Virus record (IMG/VR): IMGVR_UViG_2563366997_000002 | DNA from: a virus | Taxonomy: Duplodnaviria; Heunggongvirae; Uroviricota; Caudoviricetes | Length of the DNA: 21,588 nt | Strand: one strand, 5' to 3' | Shown: positions 1,420 to 20,790 of the stretch, in pieces | Numbering within the stretch: position 1 is the first letter of the stretch | Layout: every line of letters starts with the position of its first letter | Translations under genes and position numbers: made by a program | The notes under the pieces: model-generated | Databases searched by the model: none | The model's input: only the letters and a program-made list of their open reading frames with translations | What the model was told of the DNA's origin: nothing

Positions 1420-2845
1420 TAATGCCGATCAGTTAAGGATCAGTTGACCGATCCAGTGGCTGTGTAAGAATCCGGAAACGCTCACTCGTTTCCGGATTTT
1501 TTTATGCACATTGGACAGGCCCTTGATTTGGTATCCCGTTACGATTCTCTGCGTAACCCACTGACTTCTCTGGGGGATTACCTCGACCCCGAACTCATCT
1601 CTCGTTGCCTTGCCGAATCAGGTACTGTAACGCTACGCAAGCGCCGTCTTCCCCTCGAAATGATGGTCTGGTGTATTGTTGGCATGGCGCTTGAGCGTAA
1701 AGAACCTCTTCACCAGATTGTGAATCGCCTGGACATCATGCTGCCGGGCAATCGCCCCTTCGTTGCCCCCAGTGCCGTTATTCAGGCCCGCCAGCGCCTG
1801 GGAAGTGAGGCTGTCCGCCGCGTGTTCACGAAAACAGCGCAGCTCTGGCATAACGCCACGCCGCATCCGCAATGGTGCGGCCTGACCCTGCTGGCCATCG
1901 ATGGTGTGTTCTGGCGCACACCGGATACACCAGAGAACGATGCAGCCTTCCCCCGCCAGACACATGCCGGGAACCCGGCGCTCTACCCGCAGGTCAAAAT
2001 GGTCTGCCAGATGGAACTGACCAGCCATCTGCTGACGGCTGCAGCCTTCGGCACGATGAAGAACAGCGAAAATGAGCTTGCTGAGCAACTTATAGAACAA
2101 ACCGGCGATAACACTCTGACGTTAATGGACAAAGGTTATTACTCACTGGGACTGTTAAATGCCTGGAGCCTGGCGGGAGAACACCGCCACTGGATGATCC
2201 CTCTCAGAAAGGGAGCGCAATATGAAGAGATCAGAAAACTGGGTAAAGGCGATCATCTGGTGAAGCTGAAAACCAGCCCGCAGGCACGAAAAAAGTGGCC
2301 GGGACTGGGAAATGAGGTGACAGCCCGCCTGCTGACCGTGACGCGCAAAGGAAAAGTCTGCCATCTGCTGACGTCGATGACGGACGCCATGCGCTTCCCC
2401 GGAGGAGAAATGGCGGATCTGTACAGTCATCGCTGGGAAATCGAACTGGGATACAGGGAGATAAAACAGACGATGCAACTGAGCAGGCTGACGCTGAGAA
2501 GTAAAAAGCCGGAGCTTGTGGAGCAAGAGCTGTGGGGTGTCTTACTGGCTTATAATCTGGTGAGATATCAGATGATTAAAATGGCGGAACATCTGAAAGG
2601 TTACTGGCCGAATCAACTGAGTTTCTCAGAATCATGCGGAATGGTGATGAGAATGCTGATGACATTGCAGGGCGCTTCACCGGGACGTATACCGGAGCTG
2701 ATGCACGATCTTGCAAGTATGGGACAACTTGTGAAATTACCGACAAGAAGGGAAAGGGCCTTCCCGAGAGTGGTAAAGGAGAGGCCCTGGAAATACCCCA
2801 CAGCCCCGAAAAAGAGCCAGTCAGTTGCTTAACTGACTGGCATTA
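1420..2845 (+). mobile_element. IS4 insertion sequence, complete copy
   Basis: 1426 bp; imperfect terminal inverted repeats (left TAATGCCGATCAGTTAAGG, right end reverse-complement TAATGCCAGTCAGTTAAGC); single 442-aa transposase ORF; flanked by an 11-bp direct repeat. Confidence 0.95.
1504..2832 (+). CDS. insG: IS4 transposase
   Basis: 442-aa [23 protein letters not shown]..., recognised as the IS4-family transposase; it occupies almost the whole IS. Confidence 0.95.
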
Positions 2846-2856
2846 CTCCACTGGAG
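2846..2856. repeat. IS4 target-site duplication, right copy (CTCCACTGGAG)
   Basis: Exact direct repeat of 1409..1419. Confidence 0.85.
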
Positions 2857-3079
2857 GGGTTGATTTAACACGTAGCTCCTTCAGGTGACCCTGTTTTCGT
2901 ATCAGTATCAAGTCACCATCAATATCATCATATCGAATACTCAGCAGCCTTCCAGCGCTTAAACCCGTGTGAAAAATTAACGCCCACAAGTCAGCCCATG
3001 TATCTGAGATGGAAACAAGATTGCTGTTAATAGTTAAAAATTGCTCAAAACTTATTGTTTTCTTACCGTTCACGAACAA
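2846..3079 (-). pseudogene. tyrosine-recombinase-like gene, 5' part (split by IS4)
   Basis: N-terminal 78 codons (apparent TTG start at 3079); the reading frame runs into the IS4 end where a stop occurs. See 1220..1419. Confidence 0.5.
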
Positions 3080-3156
3080 ACCAAACTGTTTTCAAAGCTG
3101 AATGAATTGATTAAGCCAAACGTAACATATCAGGAAAAGTAGTGAAATCTTTGCCT

Positions 3157-3369
3157 TCAAGTCGCCGGGAGGTACTTGTAGATTGTTTTCACGTCCACGC
3201 CTGTCACATCAGCCACCTGCTGCCGGGTAGCGCCGTTCTCCAGCATTCTGCGGCACCGCTCCACCACTTCTTCAGTCATTATCCGGCGGCGGCCGCCGAC
3301 TCTCTCCTGCTCCATCGCTGCGGACCGACTCGGATGCATTCGGCAAATTCTAGGCCGTGATTTTTCCAA
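3157..3369 (-). pseudogene. serine DNA-invertase (Hin/Gin/Pin/Cin family) C-terminal HTH remnant
   Basis: C-terminal 45 aa, GGRRRIMTEEVVERCRRMLENGATRQQVADVTGVDVKTIYKYLPA, aligns by eye with the Hin C-terminal DNA-binding domain. The N-terminal about 140-aa catalytic domain is absent and the 5' end overlaps the upstream 266-aa gene. Confidence 0.6.
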
Positions 3370-4150
3370 TCCTCTCCATCAGATATGCCAGGATGACATC
3401 CAGTGTGCTGGTCCCATATGCATATTTGCCGGGGAAAACCAAACATTCTGACAAAACGGATGTTAACGGAGACACTGAACCATTGCCTGCTCCGCCAATA
3501 CTCATTTTTTGAGACGGGCTATACGCTGGGATTGTATAGCCCGTCACTTGTCGGCTGGTCACTGCAGACTGATCTGACCGCTGGTATGCAATTGCATAGG
3601 ATCCAGCAGCCTTGTTAGAGCACATAACTACAGCGCAGAATAAAGATTGCCCTATATTGTTAGGAGTAAATGCCAGATCGGCCTCGATCCCTCCATTCAG
3701 AAAAATCGGGAATGAACCTGCTGACGTTGTACGAATGCCGACGCCATGAGGTGTGCTTTCCTGGGTTGCGATAACCGCTCTGTCCTGTGGCGTAGCCGGA
3801 AGCGCCCCACCTGGCAGCTGATAGATGAATGCAAAAGTATTGATGTTTGCGTCCATAACCACCGCCGTATCACCAGCCATGCCGGATGCACCGGAGAAAT
3901 TAAGCCCCTGCAAAACAGAACCATTCAGCTTTGTGGATGGCTCGAGGGTCTCCAGTGACTTGAAAAGTCCGCCATCTAATCGGTTAGAGATAGCTACTAC
4001 TTTTGCACCAGACCCCATTTTTAGAAACTCTGTCTTCACTGGTGTCCATACTGATGGGGATAGTTCTGAGATCGCTTTCTCTGCCGCTGTTTGTGAGTAC
4101 ACAGGGAGTAAGGGGTTATTCAGTCCAGTTAGTGTGTAAATCAGTCTCAT
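3350..4150 (-). CDS. hypothetical protein (266 aa), probably tail-associated
   Basis: Starts 7 nt after the esterase-domain gene stop with a GAGGAT SD; Gly/Ser/Thr/Ala-rich composition. No family recognised. Confidence 0.5.
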   Translation of the reverse strand: MRLIYTLTGLNNPLLPVYSQTAAEKAISELSPSVWTPVKTEFLKMGSGAKVVAISNRLDGGLFKSLETLEPSTKLNGSVLQGLNFSGASGMAGDTAVVMDANINTFAFIYQLPGGALPATPQDRAVIATQESTPHGVGIRTTSAGSFPIFLNGGIEADLAFTPNNIGQSLFCAVVMCSNKAAGSYAIAYQRSDQSAVTSRQVTGYTIPAYSPSQKMSIGGAGNGSVSPLTSVLSECLVFPGKYAYGTSTLDVILAYLMERIGKITA

Positions 4151-4159
4151 TTTTTATCC

Positions 4160-6223
4160 TCAGAAAACGTTAATACGAAAAGCGGGGAGCCAGTCGTAAA
4201 GAGTCACGGATGTGTCATACACCCATATGATTCCAGCGGAAGATCGAACACACCCTCTTGCACCAAGAGTCCGCCCGGAAGGTTTTACAGATGCGCCGCT
4301 CTGAAGTGGGTTTTCTGCTGTCGCATAGGAAACGCGCCCAAAACGTCCAGAGGGGGCGGTCGCCAGGTTAATCAGCACGCCCTTGCCGTCCGAGCTGATC
4401 GCGATGCTCGATATAGCAGGTGGAGCACCAGTCTCATCCGTGTAGCTAAAGCCGTAATTGGCCAGACCGGAGGTGTTGATCGTAGTCGTGTCCAGCACCA
4501 GGTTCGTATACGCTGGGACATTGATTTGTATCTGCGTGGGTGAGTTCCACACGAAACTGGTCGGAACCATCCCTGACCAGCCGCTCGTAAACCACTCCTG
4601 GAGAAGCGCTCTCGCCACAGCTGCTCCGCGCCGGTTCTGGCCCGCACACGTCAAGTGCAGACCGTCTGAAATAAAATCGTACTGGTACAAACTATTGACC
4701 AGCCTGAATTGCTCTTTTCCGTGCAATCGCGTCGACGCCAGTCGCGCGTACTGGCCTGTAAATGCACCATGCCCGTCATTGACATACCCCAGCTGGGTAA
4801 TGGCGATAATCGGCGGTTCGTTTTGACCCGTTCTTGCGATGATGTCGCTGGTGATTTGTCTCTGGTACTGCCTCATCCGTGATTCATACATTCCTTCTCG
4901 TAATCCTGACCAGTCCTCGTCGGACTCTCCCTGCATCCAGTCAACGCAGAGAACAATCGGCAGCCAGCCGCGTGCTTTACAGGCCGTTACGCAGTCTTCG
5001 ATTGAATCGAGCAGATACTGATATACCTGGTTACCCCGTTTCTGGTACTCGTAAGCCTGACCAGACTGCGCACATACGATTGATAGCGTGCGCGGCATGA
5101 TTCCGGTAGCTGCAGCCATATCGCGAATGAAGGTGTTCGCGAGGCCGCTTGCGGCCGTTTCTTTATCTGTCCCACTTACTGCCTCAACCAGTGGCACCAG
5201 AGTAGTGCTGCGTGTCCCTGTACGCCTAACCCCGCCGCTGAGCATGAAAGCGTTATCAGGATATATCGGCGTTGCTGCGACAATGGTTTGATCGGCGTCA
5301 GGACAATATCCTCGAGCGTTGGATTGCCCAGCAGTCACAAAGATAAAACATACAGGCACTGTCTCTGAGTAGGGGTACACAGTAGACCCTGACAAATGAA
5401 GTCCATACTCAGGGAGCTGGTTGGCATCATCGTCGCCACCACCACCGCCATTTCCGTTATTAACAGCTACCAGGCCACCGTCTGAGTAAATCCAGTGCTT
5501 CCCACCAACCGTATAAGCTTCAACGATCTGGTTTGTGGTTGAATCAACCGTCATCCGCCACACTTTTTCACCGCCAATAAACTGCGGTATAGAACCCTCC
5601 CGGCCCAGCGCATAGAGTTCGGATTCTTGTTGGGTTAAAAGTTCGTAATATTTTCCGTCAGGACCGATTTGAATTAATCTGCCGCTTGTATTTAAAAATG
5701 GAGCCACGCGGGAAGTCTCCGGATCATATGCTGCCAGGGTCACGCTGTCTGGCGATACCTGGTATGCGTAGTCGTCACGAACCATCCGCCGTCCGGTTGG
5801 CTGCAGCGTTCCAGCGAGGTTGATATACTCATCGGCCAGAGAGCTTCCGTCCTGACTGCGGACATAGGTTGTTGAACCTGCCGGAATATTCGCAATATCC
5901 GCCTGCGCCGCCGCCAGCGTCATGTACTGCCGGCTGAGAGGGATCAGGTTTTGGCGGGCTTCATCAATAACAGCGTCGGTAGCAGCTGCCATTTTTTTAG
6001 TAGCCCCAATTATCGTATCCTGGGCGTTACCAAAACGATCTATAAAAGTATCGCTTTCGCTGTTCAGGAAATCATCGTACGCCAGGGCGTTATCATTCAG
6101 ATCCTTCATGCTATTTGAAGGTCTTGGATTGCCGGTATTATATCTTTTGTCCATACCTGTTCCTGTCTTCATCTTTTCAATGAAGCAATTAAGATTGACG
6201 CCCCGCCCCTTCAGGGCTAACAT
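4160..6223 (-). CDS. tail-region protein with SGNH/SASA-type esterase domain (putative receptor-modifying tailspike or fibre)
   Basis: Up to 687 aa. Central domain has an SGNH-hydrolase nucleophile block VTAGQSNARGY and a distal DGLH block, as in sialate-O-acetylesterase-like proteins; a fibre-like N-terminal region and a C-terminal beta-rich region flank it. The true start is probably an internal Met (6172, 6154 or 6109), because 6218..6223 overlaps the -10 element of a divergent promoter. Confidence 0.7.
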   Translation of the reverse strand: MLALKGRGVNLNCFIEKMKTGTGMDKRYNTGNPRPSNSMKDLNDNALAYDDFLNSESDTFIDRFGNAQDTIIGATKKMAAATDAVIDEARQNLIPLSRQYMTLAAAQADIANIPAGSTTYVRSQDGSSLADEYINLAGTLQPTGRRMVRDDYAYQVSPDSVTLAAYDPETSRVAPFLNTSGRLIQIGPDGKYYELLTQQESELYALGREGSIPQFIGGEKVWRMTVDSTTNQIVEAYTVGGKHWIYSDGGLVAVNNGNGGGGGDDDANQLPEYGLHLSGSTVYPYSETVPVCFIFVTAGQSNARGYCPDADQTIVAATPIYPDNAFMLSGGVRRTGTRSTTLVPLVEAVSGTDKETAASGLANTFIRDMAAATGIMPRTLSIVCAQSGQAYEYQKRGNQVYQYLLDSIEDCVTACKARGWLPIVLCVDWMQGESDEDWSGLREGMYESRMRQYQRQITSDIIARTGQNEPPIIAITQLGYVNDGHGAFTGQYARLASTRLHGKEQFRLVNSLYQYDFISDGLHLTCAGQNRRGAAVARALLQEWFTSGWSGMVPTSFVWNSPTQIQINVPAYTNLVLDTTTINTSGLANYGFSYTDETGAPPAISSIAISSDGKGVLINLATAPSGRFGRVSYATAENPLQSGASVKPSGRTLGARGCVRSSAGIIWVYDTSVTLYDWLPAFRINVF
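6195..6223 (+). promoter_or_regulatory. putative sigma70 promoter for the HTH/acyltransferase cassette
   Basis: TTGACG, 17-bp spacer, TAACAT, located 9-33 bp upstream of the first plus-strand starts. Confidence 0.4.
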
Positions 6224-6231
6224 CGCCTTAC

Positions 6232-6519
6232 GTGTTTAAACGGTTAAATAAGAGAATGATTTTAATAAATAAATACACCCCTCCAACGCAGGAAGATTTA
6301 GCCAGACTGAAATCCGCACTAAATTACTCCGGAAACCAAATGGCAGGGCTCGCAGGTGTAGCCAGCGATAGCCAATGGCGGAAATACACTGGCGGAGAGA
6401 GCCCCAGGGTAATGTCAAGACACATACTGTTTTATATTGCAGCTCAGCTTGTTCTGTCTGATGAGCAACTTAACAATGTAATAAATAAAATGCGCGATAT
6501 TGGCGCGGAGATAAAATAA
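6232..6519 (+). CDS. small XRE-like HTH protein (putative regulator), coupled to the acyltransferase
   Basis: 95 aa from a GTG start (87 aa from ATG at 6256). The segment LNYSGNQMAGLAGVASDSQWRKYTGGE resembles a Cro/C1-type helix-turn-helix. Its stop overlaps the acyltransferase start (ATAATG). AT-rich. Confidence 0.5.
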   Translation: MFKRLNKRMILINKYTPPTQEDLARLKSALNYSGNQMAGLAGVASDSQWRKYTGGESPRVMSRHILFYIAAQLVLSDEQLNNVINKMRDIGAEIK

Positions 6520-7610
6520 TGCTTGGCCTAATAAGGTTTTTTTTGGCATCGTGCGTCATTGCTTTTCACTTAACGGCTCGCATACCTGCACTTGGCAACT
6601 TTGCAGTGAATTGCTTCTATGTTATTAGTGGTTTTTTAATAACATACATTTTGCATGAAACATACAAGTTCAACTTCTCTATGTTTTGGAAAAATAGAAT
6701 ACTGAGGTTATTCCCGGCATATATATTTTTTCTCGTCATGGGCTTTCTTATTATAAAATTAATTCCATCCGCAAAGGAATTCCACTCAAACTGGACAGGC
6801 AATTTCTTACCTGGAGATTTATTAGGAAACCTCTTAATCTTCCCCTGGGCTTTCCTTTCTGATAATGCTGTAGCAAATCCATTCGGTGCCTTTTCATCCA
6901 TTTATCACTTTGCTATTGATGGTAATAGATTCAGAATAGTCACATCATCATGGTCAGTGGGTGTTGAGATAACATGTTATTTTTTATTGTGGCTTTTCAT
7001 AGCCCGAAATAAATTTACAGCCATTACGTCGATTCTGCTTTCACTGCTTTATCATGCTTACGTATATGTAGTACACCATTCTTTTGATATGGCGTATTTC
7101 CCATTCCTTGCTGCAACACTTCCTTTTAGCATGGGTTCTCTGGGTTATTTTGCCCATAGAAAGTTCAAAGCTATGTATCTTTCTCCACACAAAGCTTTTT
7201 TAATAACATTTATTTGCATCGGGATTTTTATTACCAATTGGCATTTATATACAATTAATCCATTAGGTCAGTACAACATAATACTTTACTACACCAATAA
7301 TGTAATAGCATTGTTTACAACCCTGGTATTATTAAAAATAAAGACAAACATACATCTTGAGAAAATACTCAAGTGGTTTGGTGACCTGGCCTATCCAATT
7401 TTTCTTTGTCAATATTTTGGTGGATTTCTAGCATGGCTTGCTATTGGTGGTGAAAATCGTGGCTTATCCATCTTTTTATTAGGCTACCCAATATCAATTG
7501 CACTTGGGATCGTTTGTGTAATATTAATAGACAAGCCACTAATTAAAATTAGAGCAAAAATAAGGGCGGACGCTCAAAGCAAAAATAATCAGGAAAACTC
7601 TTCAAGGTAA
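6519..7610 (+). CDS. acyltransferase family 3 (OafA/Oac-like) integral membrane O-acyltransferase
   Basis: 363 aa, strongly hydrophobic with multiple predicted TM segments. N-terminal region FHLTARIPALGNFAVNCFYVISGFLITY is typical of AT3 acyltransferases. Markedly AT-rich relative to flanks; opposite strand to the structural genes. Confidence 0.8.
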   Translation: MLGLIRFFLASCVIAFHLTARIPALGNFAVNCFYVISGFLITYILHETYKFNFSMFWKNRILRLFPAYIFFLVMGFLIIKLIPSAKEFHSNWTGNFLPGDLLGNLLIFPWAFLSDNAVANPFGAFSSIYHFAIDGNRFRIVTSSWSVGVEITCYFLLWLFIARNKFTAITSILLSLLYHAYVYVVHHSFDMAYFPFLAATLPFSMGSLGYFAHRKFKAMYLSPHKAFLITFICIGIFITNWHLYTINPLGQYNIILYYTNNVIALFTTLVLLKIKTNIHLEKILKWFGDLAYPIFLCQYFGGFLAWLAIGGENRGLSIFLLGYPISIALGIVCVILIDKPLIKIRAKIRADAQSKNNQENSSR

Positions 7611-8374
7611 ACTAAACCATTCGCTCCTTTTCCTGATGAATAGTTACCATTCCCCCCGGCACCACCTGAGCCGGGGAAACCGCCATCATCGCCAGAACTA
7701 CCGAAGTGGCCATTGCCACCCGTTGATGAAAATGCAGATCCTCCAGCCCCGCCAATAAAAGCATCAGAACCATAATACAGACCACCTTGAGATATTCCGC
7801 CAGTAATATTTAAAATGTTCCCGCCACTTCCGATACCTCCAGCAGGAACTGTAGCCCCGCCACCACTCCCTCCAGTAGCTGAGATTAAACTCCCGAACCT
7901 TGTATCACCACCATTCCCGCCTTTAGACGAGACACCAGCAGCAACAGCACTGCCACCAGTACCTATCGTCACAGATATAGTTTCGTTATCAGAAATATTA
8001 AATAACCCTTCCGAAAATCCACCAGCACAACCTCCAGATGCGCCCACACTAACTGGAGCATTCTGGCCACCTCCCCCCGCTCCCCAAACTTTCACCCGCA
8101 CTCTTTTCGTCCCTTTAGTTGGAGTGTAAGTCCCTGACTTAGTAAAGGTGACAATATTAAGCAGGCGACCGCCACCAATCGCTTTAAGAACCTGTGAATC
8201 ATCATCAGGATCAAGCTCAAGCCCCGCGCCCTCAACAACGTTTACCAGCTCACGCTGAAAGGTATTCATCATCTCAGCATTAATTATTGTCGGTGAAATA
8301 CCATTAGCGACATTACCATTAGTGTATTCACCATTAGCATCAGCGGTGTCAGTTGTACTGCCAACTTTTCTCAT
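7589..8374 (-). CDS. glycine-rich tail fibre protein
   Basis: 261 aa. N-terminus (NAEMMNTFQRELVNVVEGAGLELDPDDDSQVLKAI) resembles the conserved tail-fibre attachment domain, followed by GGxGG-rich repeats. Directly downstream of the baseplate genes. Confidence 0.65.
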   Translation of the reverse strand: MRKVGSTTDTADANGEYTNGNVANGISPTIINAEMMNTFQRELVNVVEGAGLELDPDDDSQVLKAIGGGRLLNIVTFTKSGTYTPTKGTKRVRVKVWGAGGGGQNAPVSVGASGGCAGGFSEGLFNISDNETISVTIGTGGSAVAAGVSSKGGNGGDTRFGSLISATGGSGGGATVPAGGIGSGGNILNITGGISQGGLYYGSDAFIGGAGGSAFSSTGGNGHFGSSGDDGGFPGSGGAGGNGNYSSGKGANGLVYLEEFS

Positions 8375-8400
8375 ATAAACCTTCTTTTTAAATGTCTGAA

Positions 8401-9075
8401 TTAAACGTAACCGGAAGCGATATCAAATATTTTGGCAAACTCAGGCGTGACTTCGTAAACCCCCTCATCGTTAAAACCGAAATAGATATAGCCGAATTTG
8501 ACCAGGGTGTATGAGGGGGCGAGGGCATTAATCCGGCATTCAAGCTGACGATTACCCCAGGAACGTAATGGATCGCCACAATAACTCAGACCTGCACGGG
8601 CATAAGTTATCGTTGTGTCTTCCGCCTCTACCAGCCAGACAAATGGCCAGTCATCCCCATTTAGCCCGTCACCACATACCGATAAGCCAGCACGCGCCTG
8701 CCGGTATTCCTTAATCGAAATCGTATAACCCATTGCTGCGGCAATACTGATGAAATAGCTCTTTGACTGCCCGCCGGTACTGATGAGTTTCGATACAATG
8801 TCAGACTGACGCTTCGCAATCGTATCCACTTCGCCAATCGAGCAATCATCAGGTAAGCCGAGTGTTTTTTCCCACTCGGTGAGCATAATCGTCGCAGTTT
8901 TTGGAAAGGCACCGCGCAGCAATGCAAGTGCGTCGTTATCACTTCGCTGGAAACTGGCCGCAATGGCCCGCAGTACAGCGGCCTGAACAGCTTTTGGATC
9001 CCGTGTCCACGCTCGGCCGGTGGGGATAAGCGCCTGCAGTGCCTTCTGATAATCGTCTGTTGAGAAAAGGCTCAT
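8401..9075 (-). CDS. Mu gp48-like / P2 gpI-like baseplate protein (DUF2313-type)
   Basis: 224 aa; start overlaps the upstream J-like gene stop (ATGA-type coupling); size and position match the baseplate wedge partner. Confidence 0.65.
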   Translation of the reverse strand: MSLFSTDDYQKALQALIPTGRAWTRDPKAVQAAVLRAIAASFQRSDNDALALLRGAFPKTATIMLTEWEKTLGLPDDCSIGEVDTIAKRQSDIVSKLISTGGQSKSYFISIAAAMGYTISIKEYRQARAGLSVCGDGLNGDDWPFVWLVEAEDTTITYARAGLSYCGDPLRSWGNRQLECRINALAPSYTLVKFGYIYFGFNDEGVYEVTPEFAKIFDIASGYV

Positions 9076-10220
9076 GTGTAGTTCACCTCACCACGAACAG
9101 CCAGCTCCCCAACTCCCGGCTCAATATTCGCAGAAGGCGACACAAGGATATAACCTGAAGTACCGGCAACATCCCCTATCGCACGGTTGAGATCTGAAAG
9201 GTAAATTTTCCCTGTGCCGAGCGGGTTAGCGGATTCAAACAATACCCCGTCAATCGCATCAGCAATGGCCGCAGTCGTTGCGCTGTCGGCATCAGATATC
9301 CCGCCTATTTCAAAATCGATAACGCGTTCGATGGGAGAGCAGACATAGTTAAGGGAAGTAACCGGCGCAAGCGGATACATATAATCGGCAACTCTCCCCT
9401 GATCCCCGGTGGCTTTTACAGCCCCCCACTCTTCCAGTTGAGAGACACCGTCAGTTCCTACAGGGAATCCATGATTGGTTTTATCATCGCCGTCGCACAT
9501 GATGTAAATCACCACGGTACCCGGCCCCATCCCCCGGCGCCGTATCCATGCCCTGGTAATCCCCGACACGGATAAAGCCCAGCTTTTATAATCAGTGTCA
9601 CTCCCGCCCTGCGGGGGATTCTGATACGCCAGCAGACCACGTAATCGGAAATCCTCTTCACTTTCAATGTTGGCGCCGCCGGTGGCGGGCTCAATCAGCG
9701 TAACCGAGCTGTCTATGCCGGGGGCATTAGCATCCAGTGTAAGAATGGTGCCAGCATCGGCATTTCCGGAAGCGCCTCCTCCTGTCACATCGTCTGTGAT
9801 ATCCGGCAAAACCGCTGTTACAGCAACCGACGCACTGCCAGCAGTGTTTATCGTTATGGCATCATCGGTTGTGTACTGGTAACCATCATCACGGTTTAAC
9901 ACCGCCCCTTTTGACAGTGTTTTCCCCGGCGTTCCGGTAACGGTCGCCGCCGGAGAGCGTGCTGCCGTTGCGGCTTTTCGGTAAATCTGCTTTAGCGCCA
10001 TCCATCCGGCAAGCCACTCATCGGTAGAGGTGAAAGGCGTGCTCTGACGGGCAATATAATCCAGGTAGGCGTAGTGCAGATGGGCCATGCCCGCATCCAT
10101 ATCAGCGAGCACCTTAAGGTTGCCAAACCGTAACAGCGCGCCAACACTTTCAAGCTCTGCCTGCATAAACTGGCGATTCTCCTGCCGGAGCTCGCTCAGT
10201 GTTTTCCGCTTAAATGGCAT
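9072..10220 (-). CDS. baseplate J-like protein (Mu gp47 / P2 gpJ family)
   Basis: 382 aa; size and position after the gp46-like gene; translationally coupled to both neighbours. Confidence 0.75.
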   Translation of the reverse strand: MPFKRKTLSELRQENRQFMQAELESVGALLRFGNLKVLADMDAGMAHLHYAYLDYIARQSTPFTSTDEWLAGWMALKQIYRKAATAARSPAATVTGTPGKTLSKGAVLNRDDGYQYTTDDAITINTAGSASVAVTAVLPDITDDVTGGGASGNADAGTILTLDANAPGIDSSVTLIEPATGGANIESEEDFRLRGLLAYQNPPQGGSDTDYKSWALSVSGITRAWIRRRGMGPGTVVIYIMCDGDDKTNHGFPVGTDGVSQLEEWGAVKATGDQGRVADYMYPLAPVTSLNYVCSPIERVIDFEIGGISDADSATTAAIADAIDGVLFESANPLGTGKIYLSDLNRAIGDVAGTSGYILVSPSANIEPGVGELAVRGEVNYT

Positions 10221-10659
10221 TATTCAGTTGCTCCCATAGCCAGAAGAATTTGAACTCCTGCCAGTCCCCCGCCGGCGGCAAATACCGGATGATGAGGTTC
10301 AGCCTATTCGGGAAAACAATCTCTGACTGAGCCTCTATCGCTGCTGCAATACCATCCGACTTCATCCAGGCCAGAGCCTCTTCGGCATAATCTTCAGCTC
10401 TCATCGCCACTTCGCGCGTCAGTTTTTCACGCCGCAGTAGCCACAGCCTTGAGCCAATATTCCGGTCGTTGTCCAGATCCCCCCACCAGCCGCGGCGGTC
10501 AGTTCCTTCATAATCATCATCAGCGCGCGCCAGTCCGTCAGTAAACAAACTGATAATTATGGCCGTGTGCATATCATTCTCAGATGTCAGTACGCCGTTA
10601 CCGGTTTGCCAGTCAGCATGAATGGCATCCACATCCCAGAATGAGGAAATATCACTCAT
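10210..10659 (-). CDS. Mu gp46-like baseplate protein (GP46 family)
   Basis: 149 aa, acidic, between spike and J-like genes; overlapping start and stop with neighbours. Confidence 0.65.
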   Translation of the reverse strand: MSDISSFWDVDAIHADWQTGNGVLTSENDMHTAIIISLFTDGLARADDDYEGTDRRGWWGDLDNDRNIGSRLWLLRREKLTREVAMRAEDYAEEALAWMKSDGIAAAIEAQSEIVFPNRLNLIIRYLPPAGDWQEFKFFWLWEQLNNAI

Positions 10660-11237
10660 ACCTGACTCTCTGTTTTTTCGCTTATGATCGTGCTATCGCC
10701 GGACTGAACTTTTTTAACGTCATGGTCATGATCGTTGTGAGCATCCCGCAGCGCTTTGAGCGTTGAATTGTTCGTCTCGCAGTTATCGATGATGTCACCC
10801 GTCACCAGGAGTTTGGGGGTAACCAGCTTTACCTGTTCCGTTGCCGTCGCGGTGATGTTTCTGGCATTATTGATCTCTACATCTTTGCCTTTCGCATCAA
10901 TGAAAATTCCCTCCTCGGTCAGATGAATATTCATCCCCTGCTGGTTATAGACCACGGTTTCGCCTGGCTTAAGCCCGGTATACCGGAAGCTTTGATGGTT
11001 AGAGGCAATGACGACAGGACTGGAGCGGTCCCCGCCGAGAAAGGCAATAAGCACATCCGATCCCGCCGGTAACCCCGATGAAAAACCAAAATCAGAGAGC
11101 CGTGGGGCGCTGGCCACTTCCAGCGGAGTCTGGTACTGGATTTCCTGCACAACCCCGCTATCTTTCTGCGTGGTAATACGGCCAATGCCCAGCATGCCGG
11201 CGATGCGCGTGGCCGATTTCTTTAAATTTTGATTCAT
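10656..11237 (-). CDS. baseplate spike / assembly protein V (Mu gp45, P2 gpV-like)
   Basis: 193 aa; C-terminal His-rich apex HNDHDHD as in metal-binding spike tips; position after the hub gene. Confidence 0.75.
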   Translation of the reverse strand: MNQNLKKSATRIAGMLGIGRITTQKDSGVVQEIQYQTPLEVASAPRLSDFGFSSGLPAGSDVLIAFLGGDRSSPVVIASNHQSFRYTGLKPGETVVYNQQGMNIHLTEEGIFIDAKGKDVEINNARNITATATEQVKLVTPKLLVTGDIIDNCETNNSTLKALRDAHNDHDHDVKKVQSGDSTIISEKTESQV

Positions 11238-12319
11238 TGGTTTAGTCCGGGTATTTGCTGGTAGAAAGCATAAGGCTGGACAGCGAAAGCCTCCGGGGGC
11301 ATCAGATAAAGGCGCGCATGGGTGCCGTCACTGTCTCTGATATAAGTCACCTCTGCGATAAGCAATTCGGTGTCAGGCAGCTGCAGACTCGGGATGTTGA
11401 CCGGGATAAGCGTATTCGGCTCCCATAATTTCCCGGATTTATCGCGCCAGGAATCAATCGTCACCGTTAACTGACGGGAACGGCCGTATCGGCGGTTCAT
11501 CTCCCAGTCAATCGCTCGCTGAGCCTGTTGTGAAGCCATCAGTGTACTTTCAACAATAATGATCCGTTTTCGGTAACGCATACTGGCCGCCTCAGGATCG
11601 CGGGCCGTCGCCAGCGTCACCGAATCATAAGCCGTATCTGGCGAGAATCCTGCAATCGGCGAAATGCTCATCGATACGCCGACGTAATCAGAAAAGCGGT
11701 CAGCCATCGAACGGCGGTAATAAGCCTGTTCGATATTTACCCCTTCTGCGATACCGCTGGCCGCGCGCTTTGTCCCCACCCGGGTCAGAAATAAGTTACC
11801 GTCAGGCTGATCGTAATAAAGCAATGCCGACCAGCGGGAGACACGATCAAGTATTTCCTGTGGCGATTCCCCCCAGTTCAGGGAAAATTGCGGAACTTTC
11901 ACCAGATCATCAACGTCTGTACTTACGCCAATGTTGTAATGGGATGCGAGGCGGGAGGCTATATCAAGCGCATTACTGTTATTGATGACGTTATTTGGCC
12001 ATTCAGCAGAGCAATCAACGAGATCTGCGCACTTACTGCGGCCTGAGGCTCTGACTTCATGGCGCGAACGGGAAATAGCAGGCGACCAGTCATCAACATA
12101 CCCCGTCACTACCAGGTCGTTACCAAGCTTTACCTGACAAGGCATCCCTTCCTTTACCAGCTGCTTCTGGTCACTTCCCGGAAAATAATCCATCAGTCCC
12201 AGGTCAAAATCGGAGGGAAAACGCTCAATGCCACGGGTCACCCGCACAGAGTCCCATCCTTCAATGATTTTTCCGCCCACTGTCAGGGAGACAATATCCT
12301 GATCATTATCCGTACTCAT
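11234..12319 (-). CDS. baseplate hub protein (Mu P/gp44, P2 gpD late-control-D family)
   Basis: 361 aa; size, order (hub, then spike, gp46, J) and general resemblance to the phage tail protein D family. It does not resemble a major capsid protein. Confidence 0.7.
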   Translation of the reverse strand: MSTDNDQDIVSLTVGGKIIEGWDSVRVTRGIERFPSDFDLGLMDYFPGSDQKQLVKEGMPCQVKLGNDLVVTGYVDDWSPAISRSRHEVRASGRSKCADLVDCSAEWPNNVINNSNALDIASRLASHYNIGVSTDVDDLVKVPQFSLNWGESPQEILDRVSRWSALLYYDQPDGNLFLTRVGTKRAASGIAEGVNIEQAYYRRSMADRFSDYVGVSMSISPIAGFSPDTAYDSVTLATARDPEAASMRYRKRIIIVESTLMASQQAQRAIDWEMNRRYGRSRQLTVTIDSWRDKSGKLWEPNTLIPVNIPSLQLPDTELLIAEVTYIRDSDGTHARLYLMPPEAFAVQPYAFYQQIPGLNQ

Positions 12320-12702
12320 TGTCTCAACACCTTCATCGTCGTCGGCATAAATGCCGGATGCGGTACGCTGGCCTCCTGTATCAGTTCATTTGCCCGCGAG
12401 GCATCCTGATACAGGCGGTTGGCCAGTACCAGGGCAGGAACCGGCACCGCAGTATTGATTTGCATCAACTCACTCAGTCCGGATGAAGTCTGAGCCATGG
12501 TATTCAGAAAAGCGGTTCTCACGTCCATCAATGCCGTATAAAGATCATCATCGCCACGGTCGCCCGCCAGTAGTAACGCGGTATCCAGTTGCCCGGCCAC
12601 GCGTTGAGTGATTTCTTCGGCCTCATTACGACTGGTTGGGTTGTAATCTGCAGCAGCATCCGTCATGGCTCCGGTACATAGCACTACGATCAGCGTGTTC
12701 AT
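12316..12702 (-). CDS. hypothetical protein, possibly the 3' remnant of a DNA-circulation (Mu N-like) gene
   Basis: 128 aa from the first ATG; an internal ATG at 12666 has a GGAG SD. Its stop overlaps the hub start (ATGA). It overlaps the decoration-protein ORF by 41-77 nt in another frame, consistent with a deletion junction. Confidence 0.4.
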   Translation of the reverse strand: MNTLIVVLCTGAMTDAAADYNPTSRNEAEEITQRVAGQLDTALLLAGDRGDDDLYTALMDVRTAFLNTMAQTSSGLSELMQINTAVPVPALVLANRLYQDASRANELIQEASVPHPAFMPTTMKVLRQ

Positions 12703-13135
12703 GGTGCCAGCCAGTTGCTGGCTGCTTTCGGAACGCTGGTAAAGGTGCCTGGGCGCTGTCTTTCAGGAAGATGGCCAGCGGACGTAGTGCTGTTTTCAGT
12801 TCCGGCGCAGTCCAGGAATCGTCAAAAATAATATGATTCTGGTTGAACTCGCCCATCAGGTACAGGCCGCCGGACTGATCGCCATGGGTGGAAGCGTCAA
12901 CATCATCAACCAGAATGGCCGCTGGCGTCTCGCTACCATCCGTTGCGGTTTTCACACTGGCTGTATATTTGCCACTGGCGGTGATCATGCCAAGCACAGT
13001 GCCACGCTTATACACACCGCCGGTGATCGTGCCGGTGTCAGTGACCAGTTGCAGCGTACCGGCAATTAACTGATCCGGCACAAACACTGAACTCTTCATG
13101 CCAGGTGCAAAGGCATTCTGACCAAATTGATCCAT
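12626..13135 (-). CDS. head decoration protein (lambda gpD-like) with aberrant 3' extension
   Basis: First about 125 aa fit the head-decoration pattern (...AAILVDDVD...GLYLMGEFN...LKTALRPLAIFLK). The last about 40 aa (PLPAFRKQPATGWHHEHADRSAMYRSHDGCCCRLQPNQS) look like out-of-frame read-through. Start overlaps the scaffold-like gene stop (TAATG). Confidence 0.6.
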   Translation of the reverse strand: MDQFGQNAFAPGMKSSVFVPDQLIAGTLQLVTDTGTITGGVYKRGTVLGMITASGKYTASVKTATDGSETPAAILVDDVDASTHGDQSGGLYLMGEFNQNHIIFDDSWTAPELKTALRPLAIFLKDSAQAPLPAFRKQPATGWHHEHADRSAMYRSHDGCCCRLQPNQS

Positions 13136-13725
13136 TATTTCTCTCCTTTAATGGAGTTGTAGAGGCCGGTCATCTGGTTTACCAGTGCCGATTTACCGTT
13201 CTCTTTCTTGCCGCCATCCGGATTCAGACGGACATCATGGCTTTCCTGCATGCGCTGATCGAGAGAGCGCCCGCGCGTTGCCTTTGGTTGCAAGGCTGGC
13301 GCCGTGGATGCCAGAACATCGATAGCGGCGGTAGAGCTCATCCCGGTATTGAATGCGAGTGAAGCGGCCAGTGACGGATTCGCCGCAGCGTGCTTACTGC
13401 CGAAGATACGGGCGCAACGTTTACGCTCGGCGGCGCGGGCATTTTTCACCGCTTTGCTTTCTTTGCGGTCATCGTCGCCGTCATCTTCGGAATCGTCATC
13501 GTCTTCAGCCGCATCCAGGTCGTCACCGTCATCTTCAGCGTCATCATCACGATCGTCGTTTTCCGCGTCATCTTCGCGTTCATCGTCCCCGGCATCATCT
13601 TCGCGCTCATCCTCTTCCGCGCGACGGCCTTTCGCTTTTTTGGCCTTTTTGTCCTCTTCCTCTTCGGAAGCAGTCGCGCCACGGCCAATAAGATGAGCAA
13701 AACTAAAAGTCTTTTTCTTCGCCAT
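13135..13725 (-). CDS. acidic scaffold-like head protein (Nu3 position)
   Basis: 196 aa from ATG at 13725, one nt after the protease stop; extremely D/E-rich central tract. Position between protease and decoration protein. Confidence 0.55.
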   Translation of the reverse strand: MAKKKTFSFAHLIGRGATASEEEEDKKAKKAKGRRAEEDEREDDAGDDEREDDAENDDRDDDAEDDGDDLDAAEDDDDSEDDGDDDRKESKAVKNARAAERKRCARIFGSKHAAANPSLAASLAFNTGMSSTAAIDVLASTAPALQPKATRGRSLDQRMQESHDVRLNPDGGKKENGKSALVNQMTGLYNSIKGEK

Positions 13726-13726
13726 T

Positions 13727-14593
13727 TCAGGCTCCTGTTTTTTCAAGTAAGTTTCTGAACGCAGCATCAGGAGGACACACCTCATCAGCCAGTCCAAGTT
13801 CCACACCATCAGCAGCCATAAAACAGGCAGCCTGAGTACTTTTGATAACCTTTGCGCTAATCCCCCGATTTCTGGCGACGGTATTCACAAACAATTCGCC
13901 CATGGTGTTGATGTCCTGCTGAATAGCCGCCAGCGCTTCATCTGACAGCTCTCTCAGCGGTGCCCCCTCAGCCTTACGGGAACCGTAGGTGATGATGGTG
14001 ACTTTGAGGCCGTCATCTTTTATCCGCTGGGTCCAGTCAAGGTGCATAGTGATCACACCAACTGAACCCACACCACCGGTTCGGGGAACAGAAATCCGGT
14101 CCGCCGCACTGGCAATCGCATAGGCGGCGGAATAGGCGCTTTCCGTCAGAATGGCATGGATGGGCTTTTTCCCGCGGGCGCCATAAATGACATCGACCAG
14201 ATCGAAACATCCGGCGACCTCGCCTCCTGGCGAATCAATATCCAGGCAGATCCCTGTAATATCGGGGTCTTCCATCGCAGTCAGGAAGGCCTGACGAATG
14301 CCGTCATAGCCTGTCATGCCACTGTATGGGCGCAGGCTACCCAGCTTCTGCACCAGGGTCCCACATATCGGGATGACAGCGACGCCCAACACATTGTCAT
14401 AACCCGGGTCGCTACGGGATTCCCGCCCCCTGTTATCGTCGTATCCATACCAGTCATCATCCATGGCAAGAGAGGATTCGATTTTACTGATGCCAAACCG
14501 GTCCATAACGGATGCCATGATGACTTCAGCTTTACTTGGGTGCAGCGCCAGCGGTGTATTAAAAAGGCGCTGGGCCAGATGAGGTAGATTCAC
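13727..14593 (-). CDS. head maturation protease (S49/ClpP-like, lambda gpC family)
   Basis: 288 aa; recognised by eye as the S49/ClpP-like prohead protease family by overall sequence pattern, size and position after the portal; start overlaps the portal stop. Confidence 0.85.
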   Translation of the reverse strand: MNLPHLAQRLFNTPLALHPSKAEVIMASVMDRFGISKIESSLAMDDDWYGYDDNRGRESRSDPGYDNVLGVAVIPICGTLVQKLGSLRPYSGMTGYDGIRQAFLTAMEDPDITGICLDIDSPGGEVAGCFDLVDVIYGARGKKPIHAILTESAYSAAYAIASAADRISVPRTGGVGSVGVITMHLDWTQRIKDDGLKVTIITYGSRKAEGAPLRELSDEALAAIQQDINTMGELFVNTVARNRGISAKVIKSTQAACFMAADGVELGLADEVCPPDAAFRNLLEKTGA

Positions 14594-16224
14594 TTTTCCT
14601 CCGGATCGGTAATTGTCTGGCTGGCGAACTGGTCCGCCTGCGCCCAGCTAGGTAATGGAAGTCCGCGCTTCAGGCAGGACTCAATTTCCCGCTGGCGCTG
14701 ATCAAGTATCTCTTCCCAGTCCTCACCCACGTTTTCACCCACTTCAATTTCGAGAGTGGAAAGGCCGGCATCGAGGCCGAGAATGGCGCCTTTTTTCTCT
14801 GCCACCGGATCAACCCATCCTCGCCCCGGCCCCATCCAGCGCGCACGGGAATACGCTGCCCGGGCATCAACAAAATCAGGGGCATCATTAGGTAGAGGTA
14901 AATCCTCGTTATCGTGAACTTCCTCCACAAAGGCCGTCAGAAGCGGCTGAGCGGTACCCATGGAGAAATCATCACGTCGGCGGGTGAGCGTTTTCCATGC
15001 CTCCAGCAAGGAAGATCGCGCAGAGCTGTAATTCACATCAGACCAGTCCTGTGTAACCTGCTGAGGAGATAACCCCGTACCGGATGAGAAATTACGCAAT
15101 ACTGCAGACTCGAAAACCTCAAAGTTGCTGTAAGGGCGGGCAGCGTTGACCGTTGTTATTCTCTCCCCTGGATAAAGGATCGGCATACGGGCGCCATTCT
15201 GCAGCGTCAAACGGCGATCATTATGAAACTCTGCACGACCATCCTGGTATGCTCCCAATCCCTCTTCGAAGTTTTCCCCCAGCGCGGACTGGATCATTTC
15301 GGGATCGTATGGAGACTCAATATACGCGGCGAAGATAGCATTCAGAATTGCTGCTTCCAGCTCGCTCTGGTCGTACTTCACCAGCATCTTCAGACGTTGC
15401 ACTACTGGAGTCAGAATGCCATTCCCCCGATGCTGAGCTCCACGCTCATGGTCAAAGTCGTGCACAACGTGCGGGCGCCCCCATGCGGTTTCGCGCGGGA
15501 TTCGTCGCCATGTCATTGTTTTGGCGCCACTCCACCAGTCACCGATATGTGCTTCACGTATGTGATAAGCCACAGGTGCGCCGTCAGCATCAATTTCAAC
15601 GCCGCCGCGGATATTCGGCATATCAAAATTCTGCTGCGGGTTACTGAGTCTGTCGGGATCAACAACCTGCACCGTCGTGGCATAACGCCCCTTACCTGGT
15701 CCAAGGCGATCGGTGCGATACTGAAGCACCATCAGGGCATCGCCATCAATCAGCTTGTGGCGAAAGGCCAGACGCAACATTTGTGGAACGGTTAGCTTGC
15801 GCTCAACGTCACAATAACGGCCTGTGTCGTATGCCCAGGTTCTCCAGTGGGAAGCGAGTGCTTTTCCGTACTCTTCCGCCCATACTGCGTCAAAACTTTT
15901 ATTACCTGTCATCATCCGTAATACACGATAGTCAGGCTTCATGATCGGACGGAAATTGGCGCCGACCGCATTATCAAGCAGGCGAGTTATGGCACCATTG
16001 GCCCATCCATCATTTCGGACCAGATCCCGCGCACGGGAAACTATACGGTCACGGTAGATATTAATTTCGTTATCCGGTGACCATAGTGCGGGCTGCCAGT
16101 TCGCCAGTTGATCGCTGAAGGAATCCCCGGCGTCATATGGCACCCGGCTACCGCCCGTCAACATGCTGGGTTTTGGTGCCTGATAAGGTCTCCCGTCAGG
16201 ACCAAGGATTTGCACTTTATTCAT
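14590..16224 (-). CDS. portal protein (lambda gpB family)
   Basis: 544 aa; size and position between gpW-like and protease genes. Confidence 0.9.
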   Translation of the reverse strand: MNKVQILGPDGRPYQAPKPSMLTGGSRVPYDAGDSFSDQLANWQPALWSPDNEINIYRDRIVSRARDLVRNDGWANGAITRLLDNAVGANFRPIMKPDYRVLRMMTGNKSFDAVWAEEYGKALASHWRTWAYDTGRYCDVERKLTVPQMLRLAFRHKLIDGDALMVLQYRTDRLGPGKGRYATTVQVVDPDRLSNPQQNFDMPNIRGGVEIDADGAPVAYHIREAHIGDWWSGAKTMTWRRIPRETAWGRPHVVHDFDHERGAQHRGNGILTPVVQRLKMLVKYDQSELEAAILNAIFAAYIESPYDPEMIQSALGENFEEGLGAYQDGRAEFHNDRRLTLQNGARMPILYPGERITTVNAARPYSNFEVFESAVLRNFSSGTGLSPQQVTQDWSDVNYSSARSSLLEAWKTLTRRRDDFSMGTAQPLLTAFVEEVHDNEDLPLPNDAPDFVDARAAYSRARWMGPGRGWVDPVAEKKGAILGLDAGLSTLEIEVGENVGEDWEEILDQRQREIESCLKRGLPLPSWAQADQFASQTITDPEEK

Positions 16225-16487
16225 CAGAATCTGAACCTCACTGGCTTCCGTGGCCGGGCGACAATTCCCAGTTGCGCCTGCAGCAACTGAATCAGCGCCA
16301 GCAGGTCGGCGAGAGAGCTTTGCTGATAGGAGACAGAGCGCGTCCCATCACCCTGCGTATAGGAGAATGAGACGCCACGGCTGCCGGTAGTCAGGTCGAT
16401 ATAAGCCTGCTGCGCTTTCTGCAGAGCGTCTCTGAGCTGCTCATCAGTCATCCCACCAGCAAGTAAGCTCGTGTTTCGGTTAAACAT
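16224..16487 (-). CDS. head-tail joining protein (lambda gpW-like)
   Basis: 87 aa (75 aa from the internal Met); small protein between terminase large subunit and portal, as in lambda. Confidence 0.7.
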   Translation of the reverse strand: MFNRNTSLLAGGMTDEQLRDALQKAQQAYIDLTTGSRGVSFSYTQGDGTRSVSYQQSSLADLLALIQLLQAQLGIVARPRKPVRFRF

Positions 16488-16495
16488 GGTTTTCC

Positions 16496-18628: not shown

Positions 18629-19127
18629 TCAGCACCTCTGTCATCCTGTCCGCCGGCACATTCAGATCGGCGGCTATCAGCGGTGCCACGCGTGAAGGCC
18701 AGTTCAGCCAGGCATCACGCTGCTGGCGAAAGGCGTTAAACAGAACCTCCTCGGCGATGGCCAATTCAATTGTCTGGCCGCTGTCTTTTTCATACTGGAG
18801 CTTTGCCTGCAGGGCCATGTAATTTTCACGGATCCGCGCGGCCTCTTCCCTGGAAAGGACTGCACCTTCTGTAAGCATTATCTGGCGAACGGTTTCATCA
18901 ATTTCATCGTCGCCATCATTCCGGGGTGCTGGGGCTTTTTTCTTCTTCGCGTTTGATGCCCGCGGATCTTTTCCATCACGGTTTTTCTTCAGCGCGGCAT
19001 CGCTCGCCTCAACATCAATCAGGTCGCCATCCATGACGATAAACCGACCAGCCTTGATCCATCGGCCAATAGTCTTGCGATCGACGCCTGAATGTTGCGC
19101 GTACTGACTCTGGTTCATCGTGGTCAT
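18564..19127 (-). CDS. terminase small subunit (lambda Nu1-like)
   Basis: 187 aa; N-terminal HTH-like segment (DRKTIGRWIKAGRFIV) like Nu1; immediately downstream of a repeat-rich putative cos region. Confidence 0.8.
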   Translation of the reverse strand: MTTMNQSQYAQHSGVDRKTIGRWIKAGRFIVMDGDLIDVEASDAALKKNRDGKDPRASNAKKKKAPAPRNDGDDEIDETVRQIMLTEGAVLSREEAARIRENYMALQAKLQYEKDSGQTIELAIAEEVLFNAFRQQRDAWLNWPSRVAPLIAADLNVPADRMTEVLIEHVHKHISVLGEPEFNPAED

Positions 19128-19273
19128 GGGACATCACCTGGGACATTTTTGGGGTGGGACATTTACCTGGGACATTTTTTCAATGTCCCACACGAATGTC
19201 CCACTGGAATAAATGGAATAATCCGTGCTGGCTCTGGCGTGGCTGGCGATCCCTTGGGGTGGGACATGGGACA
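19128..19273. repeat. putative cosB-like terminase-binding repeat cluster (TGGGACAT motif)
   Basis: TGGGACAT direct copies at 19139, 19155, 19168 and 19260 (plus GGGACAT at 19128), and inverted copies ATGTCCCA at 19183 and 19196, all within 150 bp upstream of the small-terminase start. Confidence 0.45.
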
Positions 19274-19374
19274 CAAAATAAAAGTTTGTAGCTAGGAAAA
19301 CACTGCGGCGCGCAATGCCCGTGCCTTACAAAAGTCTCAGGAAGGACCCAAACCCTATGGGGTAGGTATTCAGG

Positions 19375-19899
19375 TCATTTTGCCGTTCGAATCGCTTCCT
19401 CAATCGCCCTACTCAGCGCGCCGGGCATTAAGCCGGCTGCCATTGACCGTGAGCGGTTCATGTAGTCAAGCGTAGGCGTAACAGGTAGAGCATCACCAAA
19501 CCTCACCAGCAGCTTAGGAGCACGCTGTTTCCGCTTTGGTCTGCGCGTACCATTCGCTGAGCGCCGGGCTCGTTTCTTTTTCGCCTTCTTCGGTTTACGC
19601 CTCTGCCAGACAGCATCAACACCATTGACCTCACCTACGAACACATTCGGCTTCGCTTTCAACTGCGACAGCTTATTTCGCGGCATGTTGCCGTATTTGT
19701 TCAGTTTGATGTTCTTTGGATTGAGCAGCGCCTGGCTGTTCAGTTTATGTTCACCACCAAATTCAAAGGGTTCGAGATATTCAGCGGCGACATCGCGCAC
19801 AAAGACTTTTGCGCGGAGGTTGTTCTTTCTGGCGCCAGCAGAGCCCACTGAGTTGACGGTGAACGGCGTCGGCGATTCCAGTTTTCGCCCCAGTGCCAC
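19375..19899 (-). CDS. hypothetical highly basic protein (174 aa)
   Basis: Long ORF between the integrase remnant and the cos-like region, same strand as the late operon; Lys/Arg-rich tract RRKPKKAKKKRARRSANGTRRPKRKQRAPK; no Cys. No family recognised; could be spurious. Confidence 0.35.
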   Translation of the reverse strand: MALGRKLESPTPFTVNSVGSAGARKNNLRAKVFVRDVAAEYLEPFEFGGEHKLNSQALLNPKNIKLNKYGNMPRNKLSQLKAKPNVFVGEVNGVDAVWQRRKPKKAKKKRARRSANGTRRPKRKQRAPKLLVRFGDALPVTPTLDYMNRSRSMAAGLMPGALSRAIEEAIRTAK

Positions 19900-20495: not shown

Positions 20496-20607
20496 TTCTT
20501 TGGCGTCGGAGCATGCTTCGGCGCTAGAATTTTTCTCAGTGGATTTTCTCAATTTTTCTCATCGGGATGCAGGTCACTGAAAGGGAATGCTGTAAGTGTT
20601 TGAATAG

Positions 20608-20697
20608 TGGCGGAGAGAGGGGGATTTGAACCCCCGGTAGAGTTGCCCCTACTCCGGTTTTCGAGACCGGTCCGTTCAGCCGCTCCGGCATCTCTCC
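20608..20697 (-). tRNA. serU: tRNA-Ser (anticodon CGA)
   Basis: The reverse complement is a 90-nt class II tRNA (GGAGAGATGCCGGAGCGGCTGAACGGACCGGTCTCGAAAACCGG...GGGGGTTCAAATCCCCCTCTCTCCGCCA) with a 7-bp acceptor stem, CGA anticodon, long variable arm and encoded CCA. Confidence 0.93.
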
Positions 20698-20790
20698 GTT
20701 CAGATGGTTGCCATGATGCCAGGAAATTTGGCATTTTAACAGTCCCTGTCCGTGCAATTTTGTTCAAGTGACGAGTTTGCGAGCAAAACG

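Follow-up and report, generated by a model that had tools for sequence, protein, structure and literature searches.

A mobile SASA-type esterase module in a predicted tail fibre of an Escherichia coli HS-type prophage remnant, and its independently assorting acyltransferase neighbour

The DNA analysed here (the window) is the whole 21,588-nucleotide stretch of IMG/VR virus record IMGVR_UViG_2563366997_000002, assigned to Caudoviricetes. It contains a tail fibre or receptor-binding protein (RBP) gene at 4160–6154 on the minus strand, the product of which (664 amino acids (aa) plus stop) was found to carry a SASA-type SGNH esterase domain. In the best overall explanation, to which we assign a probability of roughly 0.8, its product is the side fibre (the second tail fibre) of a prophage of myovirus type whose baseplate is Mu/e14-like; this prophage is integrated at tRNA-Ser in an O9 chromosome of E. 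coli HS type and has decayed to a tail-less remnant. The fibre tip would be a mobile SASA-type SGNH acetylesterase, and the neighbouring orf87 and AT3 acyltransferase genes would form a separate lysogenic-conversion unit of the phage backbone, linked to a glycine-rich fibre.

The esterase domain (4580–5422, minus strand) was recognized by Pfam SASA (PF03629), which matched aa 294–542 over model positions 4–226 of 226 (E 1.8e-11; 44.6 bits against a cut-off of 24.8), a sequence match that is well beyond chance. A GQSN block (aa 299–302; window 5318–5329), a block III of sequence WMQGESD (aa 429–435) and a DGLH block (aa 520–523; window 4655–4666) were found, with the codons of the putative catalytic residues at 5321–5323 (Ser278), 4664–4666 (Asp497) and 4655–4657 (His500). 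Positions 1–664 of the fibre and these three residues are counted from Met24 of the longest open reading frame (ORF), which is of 687 aa, and the positions of GQSN and DGLH are counted in that ORF.

A search of 1.8 billion cluster representatives with the distal module gave 1287 clusters at E ≤ 1e-3, and most of the 150 representatives listed matched across both the esterase domain and the beta domain that follows it, at the C-terminal end of longer proteins. When the distal 420 residues of the fibre were aligned with 53 representatives showing 27–54% identity, the G, Q and S of block I were invariant (54/54) and the Asn was replaced in 17 of the 54 sequences. The His of the DxxH motif in block V was likewise present in 54/54 and its Asp in 39/54, and in block III the Gly, Glu and Asp were kept in 47, 49 and 38 of the 54, respectively. 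Compared with solved structures, the family profile matched the tailspike 9vyh (E 4e-30) and the Arabidopsis SASA esterase At4g34215 (2apj; E 5e-8); the profile was needed for this, and a phmmer search of the PDB sequences with the single protein gave chance matches only. The profile alignment places GQSN on the GQSN of 2apj (Ser31) and DxxH on its DNLH (Asp235/His238), and we take Ser31, Asp235 and His238 to be the catalytic triad of 2apj. The AlphaFold2 (AF2) model of the module (pLDDT 93.4, pTM 0.92) has the alpha/beta/alpha fold of SGNH enzymes, and in this high-confidence model the C-terminal 140 aa were modelled as strands only (module residues 289–418). The domain thus combines the above-threshold model match with the block I Ser, block III and the block V Asp and His of the SASA family.

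Beyond the esterase domain, the fibre showed a modular organization. An N-terminal virion anchor (aa 1–66) and the connector RQNLIPLSRQYMTL...GTLQPTGRR (aa 67–125) together occupy 5780–6154; they are followed by a neck region (aa 126–244; 5423–5779) that ends in a Gly5 linker (window 5435–5449) and is conserved together with the module, and the protein closes, after the esterase domain, with an all-beta domain resembling an immunoglobulin or carbohydrate-binding-module sandwich (4163–4579), which is inherited with the esterase domain and for which the model gives strands only (all on the minus strand). Matches to the N-terminal 150 aa (aa 27–150) came from ten PHROG families, of which three carry the annotation tail fiber, and phrog_4201 (tail fiber) spanned almost the whole protein (E 1e-66). 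A first-pass annotation, made from the letters of the sequence, had described a fibre-like N-terminus, an esterase centre and a beta-rich C-terminus, and had read the GQSN serine and the DGLH aspartate and histidine as the SGNH catalytic residues. Both descriptions hold: the searches with hidden Markov models returned Pfam SASA as well as PHROG tail-fibre families, the predicted structure is an SGNH-fold module with an all-beta C-terminus, and the two blocks do align with those of At4g34215 and are conserved in the family.

More than 1900 homologues of the fibre were found, mostly K. pneumoniae prophage proteins at 84–93% identity. They are alike from the connector RQNLIPLSRQYMTL... onward, and upstream of it at least five unrelated N-termini are joined, one of them of Tail_spike_N type. 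The connector was found to be the swap point for anchors as well as distal modules, the breakpoint in comparison with other RBPs lying at about window 5784–5800. In lambda-like prophages of K. pneumoniae the homologous gene comes after gpJ, in Klebsiella phage ST16-OXA48phi5.2 it comes after baseplate J, and in the lytic Mydovirus AV124 (an Escherichia phage) it belongs to the fibre cluster. In the window and in these relatives, the gene is placed in the tail module distal to the baseplate genes, and its exchangeable N-terminal anchor resembles known fibre N-termini. Judged from these sequence comparisons, a phage-specific anchor joined to a shared mobile distal module is standard RBP anatomy.

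The 687-aa ORF extends over 4160–6223 (minus strand), and its first 23 codons (6155–6223) are probably untranslated. The RefSeq start corresponds to window 6154, which is Met24 of this ORF. The ATG at 6154 is preceded by AGGA at −10 to −7, and the ATG at 6223 only by AAGG three bases upstream; besides, among the Klebsiella homologues that share the anchor, the closest one (P0002) starts with MPQRYNTGN..., aligning with MDKRYNTGN... at Met24. Since close homologues, the Shine-Dalgarno sequence and RefSeq agree, the true start is almost certainly ATG 6154, giving 664 aa. The first-pass annotation had therefore been right to doubt the start at 6223, although the public annotation already uses 6154. 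It had also noted that the start of the gene overlaps a divergent promoter, and the extra codons do cover a promoter-like TTGACG-17-TAACAT on the plus strand (6195–6223), upstream of orf87 and the acyltransferase gene. A scan of the window for promoters and terminators gave 5 sites compared to 8.8 expected from shuffled sequence, which is not above chance, so the statement on the divergent promoter is based on a single consensus match.

Taken together, the fibre tip is very likely an enzyme that removes acetyl groups from bacterial surface sugars, by analogy with characterized relatives. The distal module would be a carbohydrate O-acetylesterase of the SASA clade of SGNH enzymes joined to a beta-sandwich. 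As in tested relatives, the fibre may bind an O-acetylated capsular or O-polysaccharide on a Klebsiella-like surface, the acetyl esters of which would be cleaved by the Ser278/Asp497/His500 triad. The fibre would then modify or destroy the receptor enzymatically at adsorption, without acting as a depolymerase. Together with p266, the obligate gene downstream of it, the module would make up a cassette that moves among phages of differing tail types in Klebsiella and E. coli.

Some observations weigh against this interpretation. The esterase activity of the fibre is a prediction, and for its own subfamily the support consists of homology. The surface polymers of E. coli HS (K47 and the O9 mannan) are not among the O-acetylated K types of PMC13123978, and a literature search on K47 structure and acetylation gave nothing usable. 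Because the prophage lacks genes for capsid, sheath, tube and tape measure, the fibre in HS cannot serve an infectious particle. In addition, a cassette on the opposite strand splits the fibre gene from the late operon, and the promoter scan gave no convincing promoter of its own.

An esterase fold could also be kept merely as a carbohydrate-binding scaffold, in which case the fibre would bind its receptor without hydrolysis. Activity in the subfamily is indeed a prediction, and among the 54 aligned relatives 15 have another residue in place of the triad Asp and 17 in place of the Asn of block I. We nevertheless regard the scaffold explanation as unlikely: neither Ser nor His varies among the 54 divergent relatives and block III is kept, which is the pattern expected under catalytic selection, the HS fibre keeps all three triad residues, and a SASA-type fibre of a Klebsiella prophage cleaves p-nitrophenyl acetate. 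It is very improbable, and more so than any other alternative considered here, that the protein is a true NanS or NanS-p sialate O-acetylesterase, freed at lysis to make O-acetylated sialic acids of the host usable, and no virion protein. NanS-p prophage esterases of enterohaemorrhagic E. coli carry an N-terminal DUF1737 and lie beside the stx/lysis region; for the fibre Pfam gives SASA only, and its gene is located in the tail module. The name 'sialate O-acetylesterase' given in RefSeq (WP_001565623.1) was rejected as evidence on the substrate, and nothing in the analysis supports sialic acid. The preferred reading is a fibre-borne acetylesterase acting on surface polysaccharide.

The first-pass annotation had further proposed that the fibre and an adjacent O-acyltransferase form a write-and-erase pair. 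The acyltransferase is real: the plus-strand gene at 6519–7610 (363 aa) matched Pfam Acyl_transf_3 (E 2e-15; 57.1 bits against a cut-off of 31) and the O-acetyltransferase family phrog_3333 (E 6e-22). It is not immediately adjacent, as orf87 (6256–6519, plus strand; 87 aa) sits between the two. The acyltransferase is a predicted membrane protein of a single AT3 domain without a fused SGNH domain, and it contains R6-X10-H17 and R60ILR63, corresponding to the R/K-X10-H motif in the first transmembrane helix and the RXXR motif in the first cytoplasmic loop as defined in PMC9558356; it is thus an AT3-only, Oac-like enzyme by sequence. The orf87 gene, which is without annotation in RefSeq HS, matched phrog_20491 (E 3e-30), and a weak sub-threshold match to HTH_31 was observed. 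Its stop codon overlaps the start of the acyltransferase gene (TAATG), so that the two are translationally coupled.

According to the proposed pairing, a surface glycan on the lysogen would be O-acetylated by the acyltransferase, and exactly that acetyl group would be recognized and stripped by the esterase on the phage's own fibre. The two genes are indeed close to each other in the window, divergent and about 100 bp apart, both proteins are predicted to act on carbohydrate O-acetyl groups, and a common glycan is conceivable since all backbone carriers with a checked O locus are O9 E. coli. Association of the genes was assessed in loci from IMG/VR, in phage records and E. coli genomes, and through look-ups of exact proteins; in scans of species-representative genomes, the two alignments used were too divergent to serve as patterns, and a single-protein query gave no relative. 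Only 4 of 32 loci with the esterase module (87–100% identity) were found to contain the acyltransferase or a relative of it, all of them HS-type, and none of the 28 Klebsiella and Mydovirus loci had one in the flanks retrieved, which reached up to 8 kb in either direction. Conversely, the same acyltransferase (98–100% identical) flanks four RBPs, namely the SASA type, an SGNH/GDSL type, a TolB-like type and one of unknown type; the last three were found beside the same backbone and acyltransferase in other E. coli genomes, each followed by a partner gene of its own. This backbone also occurs in K. pneumoniae, with orf87 at 99–100% identity and an acyltransferase at 49% identity beside yet another RBP, and where relatives of the enzyme occur in Pantoea and other prophages, they end the tail module with no second RBP. 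The identity of the acyltransferase follows the tip of the glycine-rich fibre and not the esterase fibre, and the GC content of 0.35 for the acyltransferase contrasts with 0.53. Moreover, phage AT3 enzymes that have been studied block the tailspike of their own phage and thereby protect the lysogen, which is the opposite of feeding an esterase (PMC9558356).

Co-occurrence and co-variation, as would be expected for a coupled acetyltransferase and esterase, were thus not found; 28 of the 32 module loci are without the acyltransferase, which flanks four unrelated RBPs, and this independent assortment makes a write-and-erase pair unlikely as judged from the gene distribution. The adjacency is best explained by a slot for morons at the fibre end of the prophage, since the acyltransferase and the esterase fibre assort independently. 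The slot after the acyltransferase was observed to hold at least five RBP cassettes in related E. coli and K. pneumoniae loci, each with a partner gene of about 250–300 aa; one of these partners showed a weak match to Laminin_G_3 and another a match to ArabFuran-catal. In a related proposal, lysogens of this prophage family would have their O9/O3 mannan or group 1 capsule O-acetylated by the prophage, whose own fibre would read and strip this mark. We consider it a long shot, with slightly worse prospects than the general pairing; if true, the phage would create, recognize and destroy a receptor of its own making as a self-marking system, and the SASA cassette in HS-type strains would have been selected for matching the backbone acyltransferase.

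Should the acyltransferase pair with any fibre, the glycine-rich fibre is the better candidate on sequence grounds. This short tail fibre (7589–8374, minus strand; 261 aa; Pfam Gly_rich_2 and PHROG tail families) is the first fibre of the baseplate module; its gene and the acyltransferase gene converge, and their 3′ ends overlap by 22 bp. Across backbones, the C-terminal domain of the glycine-rich fibre and the acyltransferase showed identity pairs of 100/100, 78/64 and 40/50%. The comparison comprises three allele classes, which are few, and physical linkage alone could yield this pattern. It suggests that tip and acyltransferase move as one block (window 6519–8374). The acyltransferase was always found at the fibre end of prophages, the GC content of the gene is 0.35 compared to about 0.5 in neighbouring genes, and in K. 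pneumoniae loci an orf87 of 99–100% identity accompanies an acyltransferase of only 49%. The acyltransferase is most likely a lysogenic-conversion moron.

The gene for p266 (3350–4150, minus strand; 266 aa) lies directly downstream of the esterase fibre gene, and it was found in this position in 30 of the 30 module loci that extend past the fibre gene. The linkage is strict whether the context is a myo-, a sipho- or a Mydovirus. In a database of 5.8 billion proteins, close homologues made up only 22 clusters. No match was obtained in Pfam (nothing credible up to E 5), PHROG or PDB, a profile search against PDB being empty as well, and the AF2 model was unusable (pLDDT 29). Comparison by hhalign with the partners in four other RBP cassettes never reached a probability of 1%. 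Two allele classes of p266 were observed (97–100% and 68–76% identity), either of which may accompany near-identical fibre modules; when the allele class was compared with sub-regions of the fibre, every region correlated, through shared ancestry. The protein may be a chaperone or a distal subunit, both being candidates, and it may be an obligate partner of a novel kind, restricted to fibres with SASA-type tips.

Further sequence comparison showed the window to be chromosomal DNA of E. coli HS type, with 99.995% identity to E. coli HS (NC_009800.1) over window 2846–21588 and 100% over 1–1419. The sole large difference is an IS4 insertion at window 1420–2845 (transposase ORF 1504–2832, plus strand), which is additional compared to NC_009800.1 and is flanked by an 11-bp target duplication. 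The prophage remnant is placed between yodB and mtfA, adjoining tRNA-Ser(cga) (20608–20697, minus strand). This tRNA gene, together with a truncated integrase beside it, marks the attachment site, and the second prophage end was located in HS outside the window, where a 78-bp copy of the 3′ part of tRNA-Ser(cga) is 95% identical. In window 8401–19127 the genes for terminase, portal, S49 protease and decoration protein remain and directly adjoin the baseplate genes, and major capsid, sheath, tube and tape-measure genes were not found among the prophage genes of the window. In intact relatives, a DNA-circularisation gene lies upstream of the one for the hub. Past baseplate J and YmfQ, the gene order is glycine-rich fibre (minus strand), orf87 and AT3 (plus), esterase fibre (minus) and p266 (minus); a search of NCBIfam with these five genes gave no match for any of them.

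E. coli HS is known to carry a Klebsiella K47-type capsule and an O9 (= Klebsiella O3) antigen (bioRxiv 10.64898/2026.05.19.726188), and two HS prophage remnants are outside the analysis of that preprint. The presence of a Klebsiella-type fibre module in HS is therefore unsurprising. Of 5426 complete E. coli genomes, 264 contained the O9 marker wbdD-wzt, and every backbone carrier with a checked O locus was O9; these carriers were four HS assemblies, 13P484A and 127, five genomes in which the integration site and the RBP are different ones, and two with an 83%-identical module. This suggests that the phage family infects O9 strains, to which we give little weight because the signal is probably partly clonal. 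The group 1 capsule loci were seen to differ among carriers, being of wbaP/K47 type in HS and of wcaJ type in 13P484A and 127; the wcaJ-type K locus of the latter two holds an acyltransferase of its own and a beta-helix protein.

Esterase-tipped fibres appear to be a main route of capsule recognition by temperate Klebsiella phages, and the same module crosses into E. coli strains with Klebsiella-like surfaces (O9 and group 1 capsule). The locus is a clear case of a tail region that combines three independently exchangeable units, namely fibre tip with partner, acyltransferase and anchor. This is of relevance for host-range prediction, and acetylation of a surface written by one prophage may be erasable by the virions of another. 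For the HS locus itself the yield is modest, since this fibre class is already published, the gene is already annotated in RefSeq, and the HS copy is in a defective prophage.

For K. pneumoniae prophages, SGNH-domain fibres were reported as one of the most frequent kinds of enzymatic RBP, and two of them hydrolysed p-nitrophenyl acetate, one being 164_08 (WP_232162347.1), listed with Pfam SASA in the supplement (PMC13123978; PLoS Biol 2026). Prophage tailspike esterases resembling sialate O-acetylesterases were described as well (PMC12115436; 2025). The 164_08-KL2 fibre shares with the HS fibre the connector (RQNLIPLSKQY...GTLQPTGRK), Pfam SASA with a GQS block and the lack of a beta-helix depolymerase, but it belongs to a different module subfamily, with GQSL instead of GQSN. 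The assay was thus on another subfamily than that of the HS fibre, and the p266 partner is not described in PMC13123978. The tailspike of the cyanopodophage Pan3 (PDB 9VYH), on the activity of which our literature search found no paper, matches the HS fibre over 387 residues including the esterase and beta domains, but it shows only about 20% identity, has another N-terminal part and comes from a podovirus of a cyanobacterium. The same fold with GQSN, QGE.D and DxxH blocks is found in At4g34215 (2APJ), XAC1771 (7KMM), 1ZMB, mammalian SIAE (8F9R) and NanS (3PT5), and XAC1771 likewise has an added beta domain; unlike the HS fibre, these SASA/CE6/CE20 acetylesterases are soluble cellular proteins without a fibre anchor, at 13–22% identity. 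The acyltransferase of the locus resembles Oac of Sf6 and PhiV10 (PMC9558356), which are also prophage-borne, lie beside fibre or tailspike genes and consist of a single domain of about 330–360 aa with R/K-X10-H and RXXR. This similarity is at the family level, the enzyme of the HS locus is preceded by the coupled 87-aa gene, and its serotype-converting role is a putative one. Finally, G7C gp63.1 (PDB 4QNL) is, as cited in PMC13123978, an RBP with an SGNH domain that deacetylates the O antigen of the host without depolymerisation and is needed for infection. The HS fibre differs from it in SGNH subfamily and domain arrangement, and by analogy G7C gp63.1 was adopted as the mechanistic model of how the HS fibre may act on its receptor.

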